From Escherichia phage ECO103 4-12-1: 64,000 nt of DNA. The notes beneath the pieces are model-generated. The model worked only from the letters and a program-made list of their open reading frames with translations, was not told where the DNA came from and made no database searches. The position numbers and the translations under genes are program-made. The stretch lies in the sequence record OR844650. One strand, given 5' to 3'. Position 1 is the first letter of the stretch, and every line of letters starts with the position of its first letter. This document shows positions 27,168 to 29,512 of this stretch, one piece after another.

Positions 27168-27205
27168 AAAAAAGGAGAGCATAATGCTCTCCTTTTCTTT
27201 TTTTA
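27168..27205. terminator. bidirectional terminator between the giant gene and the ClpA gene
   Basis: GGAGAGC-ATAAT-GCTCTCC stem flanked by an A-run (5') and TTTTCTTTTTTT (3'). Confidence 0.6.
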
Positions 27206-29512
27206 TACTAGTGCTTTATCTACAGCTTTGGTACGTTTCGGCTTAATACCGATTTTACCATCAATAACATCAAATGTAATGTTACCACCATTCACAAGTG
27301 AACCACACAACATTTCTTTAGCTAGTGGTACACGAATGTTTTGTTCAATGGTACGTTTCATTGGACGTGCACCCATACCAACTTTTACCCCATTTTTCGC
27401 AAGCCATTCACGTGCAGCTTTTGTCAATGTAACTTTAACATTACGGTCTTTGACTTGTTCATTCAAACCACCCATGAACTTATCAATGATGCTGTCAATA
27501 GCTTCACTGCTTAGGTCTTTAAACGTAACGATACTATCAATACGGTTAATAAACTCTGGTGGCAAGAATGCTTTAATTGCCTTGTCCTGTGCAGTGTCAC
27601 TACCGCTCATACCAATGCTACGCTTTGTTGAATCAGCCGCACCAAGGTTTGTAGTCATAATAACAGTTACGTTATTAAAATATACAGTTTTACCTTGAGA
27701 ACCAGTCAGACGACCTTCATCCAAAACCTGTAGGAAGGTTAGTAGTACTTTACGATCTGCTTTTTCAATTTCATCAAGTAACAGTACTGCATTAGGGAAC
27801 TGCTCAATTTTATCCAACAGTAAACCGTTACCAGAATCATGACCAACATAACCTGGAGGTGAACCAATTAGTTTAGAAACAGTATGTTCTTGAGAAAATT
27901 CTGACATATCAAAGCGAATGAGTTCCGCACCAGTTGCGTCTGCTAATGCTTTGGTAATTTCTGTTTTACCAGTACCAGATGGTCCAACAAACATAAATGC
28001 ACCCTGAACACTAGATTTGTCACGCAGTCCTGCACGAGCTACCATCACGTTATCAACTAATTTTTGAATAGCTTCCTCTTGACCGTATACACGTGAGCGT
28101 AGTGCATCTGGTAGATTACGCATACGATCACTTTCAGTACATGCAACCACGTTGATATCCAAATTGGCAATACCAGCAACAACTTCTTGAATCAAATTGG
28201 CAGTAATTAGCTTACTATTGTTGTCACGTGAACGAACTTTAGCCGCAGCAGCATCCATTAGATCAATTGCTTTATCTGGGAAGTGCTTATTCTTCAGGAA
28301 TTTATCACTGAGAGAAATTACAGCATCCATTGCATCAGATGTGAACTCAACATTATGGAATTTTTCATACGTTGGTTTCAAACCATTAACAATTGCACGA
28401 GTTTCATCAATTGTCGGCTCAACTACGTCAATTTTCATAAAACGACGAGTTAATGCACTATCTTTCTCGATATTTTTACGATATTCATCATATGTTGTTG
28501 CACCAATTACACGAATCTCACCACGTGAAAGTGCTGGCTTAAGCATATTGCTCATGTCCATAGAACCATTACTTGCGGAACCAGCCCCAACCATAATATG
28601 AATTTCATCAATGAAAACAATAGTATTTTCACGTTTCTTTAGTTCTTTTAGCAAATTGTCGATGCGTTCTTCAAATTCACCACGATACTTAGTACCAGCA
28701 GTCAATGCACCAACATTTAGTGAAAGAATTTCAACGTCTTTCAGGTGTTCAGGTACGTTACCATCAGCAATAGCTTGTGCAAGCCCGTCGATGATTTGTG
28801 TTTTACCTACACCAGCTTCACCAGTGAGAATAGCATTCTTTTTGGTTTTGCGAGCAAGAGTCTCAATCAATGCAGACAATTCTTTCTGGCGACCAATCAT
28901 AGGATCTAGTTTGCCTTCTTTTGCAAGAGCAGTTAGATTCGTTGTATAGTCTTCCAAACCTTTTTGTTTAGATGATTGCTGCTGTTGGGCCACTTTTTTA
29001 TCTCCAATCGGTTCGTCATTAATACTTTGTAAGTTGATACCCTTATCAAGTGACTCAACGTGTTTCTGTAATGCACGTGCAGCTTCAGTACAGCTAACAC
29101 CTTCTTCTTTTAACGCAGCTTCTAGTGCTGTGTTAGGGAAAGACAGACATTCGAATAGAACAAAATATGCATCAATCGAAAAATCATCACTTTTTAGTTG
29201 TTCAATAACTGATTTTTTAGAAAGCTCATGTACAACGCGATTCACTAGAAGTGAAGTTCGATTCGCGTCTTCATCTTTAACACTTTTTGGTGCATGTGGA
29301 ACTGTTGTATTTTTAAGATAGTTCATTAGGCGGTTGTGCAGTTTGTCTGCATCAATGTTCATATCTTCAAATACGTTCTTGATGCTATCAATAGTCAGTA
29401 CTGTGGCACTTACGTGGTCAATAGTCAAGAATGTATGACCTAGAGATGTTGCCAGTTCGTCGCTTTTTTTGAACAATTGAGTAAGATTCATGTATTCTCC
29501 TATGTGATTCAC
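27203..29512 (-). CDS. ClpA-like two-domain AAA+ unfoldase (Clp ATPase homolog)
   Basis: Co-linear similarity to ClpA over its full length: D1 Walker [11 protein letters not shown] and Walker B VFIDEIH; D2 GPSGTGKTE and LLLDEIEKA; sensor motifs GARPMKR; no ClpB-type middle domain; 769 aa. Confidence 0.85.

Follow-up and report, generated by a model that had tools for sequence, protein, structure and literature searches.

A ClpA-type unfoldase gene in an Escherichia jumbo phage and its candidate partners in a proposed phage-encoded Clp protease

Parts of the bacterial Clp machinery have been reported from several large phages. According to the available text of Attai et al. 2018 (PMC6102473), ClpA is conserved in most Rak2-like phages, and the Agrobacterium phage Atu_ph07 has ClpX, ClpA, ClpB, ClpP and ClpS; the available text of Iyer et al. 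2021 (PMC7824862) likewise describes jumbo phages with ClpA and ClpX chaperones, ClpP and ClpS, and speculates on translocase or assembly roles. Here we analyse a gene of this kind, clpA, in Escherichia phage ECO103 4-12-1 (sequence record OR844650), within a stretch of 64,000 nucleotides that is called the window throughout. Its product is identical to gp581 of phage 121Q (tblastn, 100% over 762 aa), its DNA is 99.7-99.9% identical to that in 19 records from phages of the 121Q/PBECO4 group (Asteriusvirus, jumbo myoviruses of ~350 kb), and many GenBank records already label the gene 'ClpA-like'. The gene is therefore already annotated and belongs to a family known in the literature, so that the novelty of its identification is low. 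What can be added is a testable picture of a presumably early-expressed phage trio, consisting of ClpA, ClpP and a ClpS-like protein, whose docking interface departs from that usual in cells; neither the constancy of this trio nor the drift of the docking loop is described in the available parts of the two papers.

In the reading that we prefer, with a probability of roughly 0.55, gp581 serves as the unfolding motor in a ClpA-ClpP protease that the phage itself encodes and that is possibly tuned by the ClpS-like protein. It is favoured because the trio is constant, the catalytic features of both ClpA and ClpP are intact, the promoter type is shared and ClpA does not appear to be a virion protein. 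More specifically, clpA would have a sigma70-type promoter of its own, from which the host RNA polymerase would transcribe it, presumably early, and its product would form a hexameric double-ring AAA+ machine that engages substrates via a divergent N-domain, possibly aided by the ClpS-like protein (gp48 in 121Q). Substrates would then be threaded through the KYR and GYVG pore loops by ATP hydrolysis in the two AAA+ modules, D1 and D2, and handed to the phage ClpP (gp464 in 121Q), docking through an IGM loop in D2. We infer the physical association of ClpA with ClpP and with the ClpS-like protein, the early timing and the substrates, which may be host or phage proteins.

The reading frame is open without a break on the minus strand between 27203 and 29512, as an earlier note made from the window alone had reported, and gives 769 aa when counted from a GTG in the list of open reading frames (ORFs). 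The frame stands, but its start probably does not: the GTG at 29512 lies seven codons upstream of an ATG at 29491 that has the sequence AGGAG at 5-nt spacing and is the RefSeq start of the identical 121Q gene, and the product is therefore most likely 762 aa long, with a TAA stop codon at 27203-27205. The inverted position of the gene had been described correctly, since clpA is convergent with a 3333-aa ORF (17165..27166, plus strand) and divergent from the gene for a 497-aa virion protein, beyond which lies a T4 gp15-like sheath-completion gene.

Several independent comparisons identify the product as ClpA. The best-scoring NCBIfam model is that of ClpA (TIGR02639), which covers the full length in one stretch; the ClpB model reaches 634 bits in two stretches, and the ClpC, ClpV, ClpK and ClpG models also align in two pieces only. 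A search of the PDB aligned residues 24-748 with E. coli ClpA, again in one stretch (E = 2e-180), so that the co-linearity claimed earlier across both AAA+ modules holds, with all the quoted motifs found. The ClpB-type middle domain (M-domain) is missing, also as claimed: the alignment is collinear without insertion, and between ClpA positions 395 and 445 the phage protein has 49 residues and E. coli ClpA 51. An identity as a ClpB/Hsp104 disaggregase was rejected, as there is no D1 insertion and a docking-type loop is present. In addition to the motifs collected in the table below, the protein has ALTRRF in D1 and PEFINRID in D2, and about 118 of 118 homologues keep the Walker A and B motifs, the arginine fingers, sensor-2 and the aromatic residue of each pore-1 loop. 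The AlphaFold2 model (mean predicted local distance difference test score, pLDDT, 78.7) consists of an eight-helix N-domain, a disordered linker at residues 157-176 and two AAA+ modules, with a flexible loop at 624-630. In Foldseek the model covers ~755 columns of full-length ClpA (1r6b, 1ksf), and its D1-D2 core matches the ClpA chains of ClpAP complexes with template modelling (TM) scores of 0.77-0.83 and an identity of 47-48%, the highest among the hits. PADLOC returned only generic AAA+ matches for the protein. Judged by its motifs, phage ClpA looks like a full-length and functional ClpA-type unfoldase, as had been proposed, with the ATPase motifs and the pore tyrosines intact and a hydrophobic loop at the docking position.

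The N-domain is the least conserved part. It exceeds the Pfam Clp_N cutoff only slightly (21.7 bits vs 20.7), with one repeat detected, and is 21% identical to that of E. coli ClpA, compared with 51% for D1 and 45% for D2. Between 121Q and XaC1 the corresponding values are 27% for the N-domain and 59-65% for D1 and D2, which makes it the fastest-evolving part of ClpA in the clade, as is expected of a module that selects substrates or adaptors.

The homologues of phage ClpA form a deep clade, with identities that run from 93% down to 53% and then fall to 46% or less. The clade appears to be phage-only, and many of its members lie on contigs of ~350 kb (RaK2, GAP32, CBB, Munch, pEa_SNUABM_19, XbC2, XaC1). 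Several members (P0001, P0010, P0013, P0076) carry the species label 'Escherichia coli' or 'Salmonella enterica' at NCBI and come from contigs of 350-380 kb; these contigs are jumbo-phage genomes inside bacterial assemblies, either in a carrier state or as contamination. Identity to E. coli ClpA is 43%, and a search for a close relative in 185,579 bacterial species genomes found none, the best full-length matches reaching 42-43%. When 1.8 billion cluster representatives were searched exhaustively with HMMER, nothing above 53% identity was found; the top three hits (53, 49 and 45%) seem to be outliers of the phage clade, and the best representatives outside the clade are at 49% or less. With cellular relatives reaching about 49% identity at most, a recent host capture is rejected and phage ClpA is, by these identities, an old phage lineage. 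Phylogeny had been suggested earlier as a check on acquisition from a host, and the identity searches bear on that question: a protein at 43% to E. coli ClpA, in a clade kept down to 53% in Rak2-like phages, is no recent host fragment.

The same data bear on the idea that the gene encodes a degenerate pseudo-ATPase, or is a recently acquired host gene fragment without a specific phage function. In its favour is the ClpA score, which lies under the NCBIfam trusted cutoff. The 762-aa frame is intact, however, and the pseudo-ATPase is rejected because the catalytic motifs are invariant; loss of the docking loop and of the pore-loop tyrosines, which the earlier note had named as signs of degeneracy, is not seen, with IGM, KYR and GYVG all present. 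A host fragment is equally at odds with a clade found on large phage contigs and with the want of a close bacterial relative, and we regard a degenerate or captured gene as refuted, with a probability close to nil.

A search for partners within the window was negative, as tblastn found no homologue of ClpP, ClpS or ClpX in its 64 kb, and the earlier remark that no ClpP-like gene is seen there was correct. However, this absence, the premise of the idea that a phage ClpA would hijack the ClpP of its host, holds only for the window. The partner genes were read from the whole genome of 121Q, in which ClpA is 100% identical to that of the window, and the recommended search for clpP or adaptor genes elsewhere in the genome finds both: gp464, a ClpP, and gp48, a ClpS-like protein. 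With its own ClpP and ClpS-like protein encoded outside the window, the phage probably has no need to borrow a host protease.

By its sequence, gp464 (L006:18364-19059) is a canonical full-length ClpP. It matches Pfam CLP_protease over its full length at 141 bits (cutoff 20.2) and is 36% identical to E. coli ClpP; the catalytic triad S97, H122 and D171, the axial-loop residues P4, V6, E8 and R15 and the pocket residue Y62 are kept in 121Q, RaK2, GAP32, Munch, XaC1 and MIJ3. The ClpP equivalog model scores 151 bits, below its cutoff of 308, and a ClpP-related head-maturation model 51 bits. RefSeq and PHROG label gp464 as a prohead protease, which is unlikely in view of these two scores and of gp601, a separate T4 gp21-like prohead protease in 121Q whose presence means that gp464 is not needed for head maturation. 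The Rak2-like ClpPs (gp464 and the orthologues in L015-L017 and L019) share a conserved C-terminal tail of ~20 aa (...KYLVKRRGGVEEWV), which neither E. coli ClpP nor the PA5oct-like ClpP has; situated near the docking pockets, this tail could matter for the choice of ATPase.

In 121Q the canonical clpP is followed, at a distance of 3-5 kb, by two further peptidase-like genes. One, gp473 (L006:22420-23028), is a very divergent ClpP-like protein, and was rejected as a second partner of ClpA: its 16.7 bits are below the Pfam cutoff, its N-terminus resembles a signal peptide and its PDB matches are noise. The other, gp475 (L006:23356-23952), is an HslV-like peptidase (phrog_1040, 1e-23) for which no cognate HslU was seen; no evidence was found that gp475, or the ATPase gp563, is linked to ClpA.

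The ClpS-like protein gp48 scores 24.7 bits against Pfam ClpS (cutoff 23) over residues 74-144, and has conserved N- and C-terminal extensions. Its gene stands between those of an initiation factor 3 (IF3) homologue and a KTSC-domain protein (121Q gp47-gp49, L002:33944-35623), an adjacency also found in RaK2, GAP32 and XaC1 (L020-L022), and in 121Q a consensus sigma70 promoter lies upstream of these three genes. We take residues N34, D35, T38, M40 and H66 of E. coli ClpS to be diagnostic of its N-degron pocket. In four lineages of the ClpS-like protein, D35 and T38 are mostly kept and E79 is conserved. Because H66 and M40 are changed, canonical N-degron recognition is doubtful on the evidence of these residues, and the protein may act as an adaptor or regulator peculiar to the phage.

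The three genes occur together with great regularity. The ClpS-like protein was found by tblastn in 70 phage records, all of them Rak2-like; with a threshold of 60% identity, the same survey gave 69 records with ClpA and 68 with ClpP, and the named phages are identical across the three record sets. Both ClpA and ClpP are also present in the more distant PA5oct/MIJ3 group. As regards the virion, the ClpA-like protein of phAPEC6 (gp246c) is absent from a list of 62 virion proteins determined by mass spectrometry, on which its neighbours gp245 and gp248 are present.

Regulatory sequences around the gene were compared with those of its partners and neighbours. Its predicted promoter, TAGACA-N16-TGATATAAT at 29559..29532, is near-consensus and lies about 40 nt upstream of the ATG, and extended -10 promoters are found upstream of clpA in Munch and GAP32 as well. 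In 121Q, clpA and clpP carry the same variant, T[A/G]GACA-N16-TGATATAAT, and the operon of IF3 and clpS is preceded by TTGACA-N17-TATAAT; in XaC1 a single motif, GTGTCCTATACTA, is present upstream of both clpA and clpP. TGnTATAAT sites with a -35 match of at least 4/6 number 48 genome-wide in 121Q, and since shuffles give 8.7 (a 5.5-fold enrichment) they are, as a statistical matter, a real promoter class serving roughly 8% of the genes. Several structural neighbours of clpA carry T4-late-like ATAAATA motifs. These consensus matches fit early transcription of clpA by the host RNA polymerase, and an own sigma70-type promoter within a gene block that bears late-type motifs agrees with the independent regulation suggested in the earlier note.

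That suggestion had been based on the isolated orientation of the gene and on two bidirectional terminators bounding it, of which one is found. At the 3′ end a hairpin at 27170-27196 has a GC-containing stem of 12-14 bp flanked by an A-run and a T-run (-20.3 kcal/mol, z = -5.24, none of 200 shuffles as stable), and in phage Munch a terminator is annotated at the equivalent place. In the 5′ flank (29492-29610) folding is no more stable than chance (z = -0.33) and no terminator was found; the predicted promoter lies there instead.

In E. coli ClpA, I617-G618-L619-I620 insert into a pocket of ClpP that is formed by A52, L48, F49 and F82 with L23, Y60, Y62, I90, M92, F112, L114 and L189 (bioRxiv 10.1101/820209). 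An alignment at the IGF/IGL loop, suggested previously as a check, places the phage loop at the homologous position, but its tip is neither IGF nor IGL: I626-G627-M628 (27608-27616) correspond to I617-G618-L619. Of the contacts that come after it, I620 has become S and H621 has become G, and the phage loop falls short of the E. coli one by two residues. Phage ClpA might nevertheless dock with E. coli ClpP and redirect it to targets chosen by the phage, for host takeover or the removal of defence proteins. Such a hijack draws on a hydrophobic IGM loop at the right place, on ClpP pockets that are generic hydrophobic clefts accepting both IGF and IGL (bioRxiv 10.1101/820209) and on an early-type promoter, which fits a takeover function. 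The altered contacts beyond the tripeptide and the shortened loop speak against it, and its main argument is lost now that the phage's own ClpP is found to co-occur with ClpA in every lineage examined; we consider it unlikely, although some mixed docking may occur.

A number of observations also weigh against a phage-encoded ClpA-ClpP protease, and several of them concern this same interface. For comparison, tripeptides were taken from 139 ClpA-type proteins that lack an M-domain and share <50% identity with one another, the phage counts being numbers of sequences in a shallow clade rather than of independent events. The canonical form [ILMV]-G-[FL] is present in 22 of 113 clade members (19%), against 115 of 139 (83%) of the diverse cellular proteins, 75 of which have IGF. 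Some 25 kinds of tripeptide exist in the clade (IGM, MGM, LGM, IGV, IGA, IGG, LGL, VGF, MSM, MNM and others), with Met at the third position in 58/113, compared with 1/139 in the cellular set. Glycine is lost in 19 of the 113, for example in the MNM of Munch, a phage that keeps an intact ClpP. On the other side of the interface, four of 12 pocket positions of the phage ClpP are non-conservatively changed (Y60T, F82S, L114G, A52S), although the pocket is still mostly hydrophobic. It is possible that the interface has co-evolved away from that of the host, or that selection for docking is relaxed because ClpA often works without ClpP. A comparison of loop and pocket in six lineages gave a hint of covariation, which is not claimed here because the points are too few and phylogenetically confounded. 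Furthermore, (i) ClpA falls under both NCBIfam trusted cutoffs (TIGR02639, 755 vs 993 bits; PRK11034, 654 vs 1350), (ii) in four lineages the ClpS-like protein is without the pocket residues H66 (replaced by N or K) and M40 (by A, D or E) of E. coli ClpS, (iii) the three genes of the trio are dispersed over the 121Q genome (about 34, 214 and 298 kb) and form no operon, (iv) the conserved pairing of clpA with the gene of a giant virion protein hints at a role in assembly and (v) a literature search found no experimental study of the proteins on any phage of the Rak2-like clade. The text of the PA5oct omics paper was checked for the timing of expression, and Clp is not mentioned in it.

The assembly role just mentioned would make ClpA a ClpP-independent chaperone or unfoldase of virion morphogenesis, which, without degrading them, remodels giant structural proteins or holds them in a state fit for assembly, the 3333-aa baseplate-associated protein in the first place, much as E. 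coli ClpA acts as a chaperone on RepA. It would account for the convergent arrangement of clpA and the gene of a virion protein of ~3300 aa with a terminator in common, which is kept in GAP32, Munch and XaC1 with ClpA at 62%, 70% and 54%, for the position of clpA in the PA5oct-like phage MIJ3, next to dnaJ and close to the gene of a 2236-aa tail protein, and for the drift of the docking tripeptide with its occasional loss of Gly, as expected if docking to ClpP is dispensable. However, the structural module is syntenic throughout the clade, and the conserved position of clpA is therefore weak evidence of functional coupling. The promoter of clpA is of the sigma70 type, as opposed to the late-type motifs of its structural neighbours; the window phage and most of the clade have a hydrophobic-Gly-hydrophobic tripeptide (Gly in 94 of 113); a canonical ClpP is always found alongside; and ClpA is not in the phAPEC6 virion, although a transient role would still be compatible with this. 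A chaperone function independent of ClpP seems to us rather improbable on balance, though somewhat likelier than the hijack of host ClpP.

The phage-encoded protease can be taken further, to a self-contained machine of ClpA, ClpP and a divergent ClpS-like protein that Rak2-like phages would express early from sigma70 promoters and that would be orthogonal to the host. Its ClpA-ClpP interface would have been remodelled, through a Phi-G-M or other loop tip, the pocket changes Y60T, F82S and L114G and the C-terminal tail, and would be insulated from host ClpP, ClpX and ClpA, while the fast-evolving N-domain and the adaptor would select host targets of defence or takeover for destruction. We offer this extended version tentatively. 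If the trio does form an active protease, these jumbo phages introduce a regulated proteolysis of their own into the infected cell, for uses such as the removal of host defence or housekeeping proteins, or quality control of phage proteins during the assembly of very large virions. A docking interface diverged from that of the host would also be a natural orthogonal AAA+ protease pair, useful for synthetic biology.

Table. Positions in the window of the clpA-like gene, its predicted domains and motifs, and its flanking signals
Feature	Position	Strand	Basis
clpA-like coding sequence	27203..29491	-	ORF list; RefSeq; tblastn 100%/762 aa; TIGR02639 755 bits; phrog_4871 (PHROGs) 1035 bits
Predicted sigma70-type extended -10 promoter, TAGACA-N16-TG-TATAAT	29532..29559	-	Scan, 11/12 plus TG
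Shine-Dalgarno, AGGAG	29497..29501	-	Sequence; 5 nt before ATG at 29491
N-domain, Clp_N-type, all-helical (aa 1-150)	29042..29491	-	Pfam Clp_N; AlphaFold2; Foldseek
Flexible Gln/Lys-rich linker (aa 151-180)	28952..29041	-	pLDDT < 50 at residues 157-176
D1 AAA+ module (aa 181-440)	28172..28951	-	Pfam AAA and AAA_lid_9; motif conservation
D1 Walker A, GEAGVGKT	28799-28822	-	Pfam; alignment
D1 pore-1 loop, KYR (K268-Y269-R270)	28682-28690	-	Alignment
D1 Walker B, IVFIDEIH	28598-28621	-	Alignment
D2 AAA+ module and D2-small (aa 441-750)	27242..28171	-	Pfam AAA_2 168 bits; ClpB_D2-small 77 bits
D2 Walker A, GPSGTGKT	27962-27985	-	Alignment
D2 pore-1 loop, GYVG (G547-Y548-V549-G550)	27842-27853	-	Alignment
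D2 Walker B	27758-27787	-	Alignment
Docking loop tip, RSIGMSGS (aa 624-631)	27599..27622	-	Alignments; low pLDDT over 624-630, in keeping with a flexible loop
D2 sensor-2, MGARPM	27359-27376	-	Alignment
Bidirectional intrinsic terminator, common to clpA and the convergent 3333-aa gene	27170..27196	.	Hairpin; shuffles

Other features of the window and of related genomes were recorded along the way. The virion proteins encoded beside clpA, of 3333 aa (17165-27166) and 497 aa (29602-31095), have no Pfam domain at E <= 0.001, and the former has been detected in the phAPEC6 virion as gp245 (382 kDa). A gene for a MutT/NUDIX hydrolase at ~32449-32913 (121Q gp578) lies within the tail and neck structural block, and has the same place in GAP32, XaC1 and Munch. 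A dnaJ-like gene stands directly beside clpA in PA5oct-like phages (MIJ3, L014:8284-8973) and, according to the available text of PMC6102473, in Atu_ph07; the DnaJ-like and KTSC genes of 121Q are located elsewhere and not beside clpA. Two differences from 121Q concern mobile endonucleases. Specifically, a stretch of ~1.1 kb at 900-1976 is missing in 121Q and contains a 323-aa ORF (961..1932, minus strand) with repeated treble-clef zinc-finger/DUF723 units and a nuclease-like C-terminus, adjoining an endonuclease VII gene (1978..2469); it is probably a homing-endonuclease insertion. Conversely, at ~13609-13639 the window is without the 765-bp HNH endonuclease gene (gp584) that 121Q has between its gp25-like and gp6-like baseplate genes, a polymorphism of a mobile endonuclease.

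Compared with described systems, ClpA of ECO103 4-12-1 is first of all a member of the Rak2-like ClpA family (121Q gp581, PBECO4, RaK2_00069, GAP32_229, CBB, Atu_ph07 gp292; phrog_4871), with identities of 100% to 121Q gp581, 75% to RaK2, 62% to GAP32 and 54% to XaC1, and with the same genomic position and orientation; within the window the phage differs from 121Q only in the presence or absence of homing endonucleases elsewhere. The other phage-borne Clp components (Iyer et al. 2021; Attai et al. 2018) similarly belong to large phages that possess pieces of the Clp proteolysis and chaperone equipment of bacteria, and the accounts of them, in the available text, are gene lists and speculation without a biochemical or genetic test. 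Among double-ring enzymes of the class-1 Hsp100 type, ClpC (MecA-ClpP) and ClpB/Hsp104 have the AAA+ fold in common with phage ClpA, with strong matches in sequence and fold; unlike it, both ClpB and ClpC have the coiled-coil M-domain in D1, and ClpB is without a ClpP-docking loop. The closest cellular counterpart is the E. coli ClpA of ClpAP and ClpAPS (1KSF, 1R6B, 6UQO, 7UIV), which has the same order of Clp_N, linker, D1, D2 and D2-small, a nearly equal length (758 aa vs 762 aa) and likewise no M-domain. Both proteins have the KYR and GYVG pore loops, the Walker A and B motifs, sensor-2 and a hydrophobic-Gly-hydrophobic D2 tip, and at 43% overall identity (with D1, D2 and N-domain diverged to the different degrees given above) their D1-D2 parts superpose with a TM score of about 0.8. 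They differ in the docking loop, where IGM replaces IGL, IH in the next contacts becomes SG and two residues are missing, and in their setting, as the phage gene belongs to a virulent jumbo phage and has its own early-type promoter. The partners differ from those of E. coli as well, the phage ClpP being 36% identical with an extra C-terminal tail of ~20 aa, and the ClpS-like protein having long N- and C-terminal extensions and no conservation of H66 and M40.

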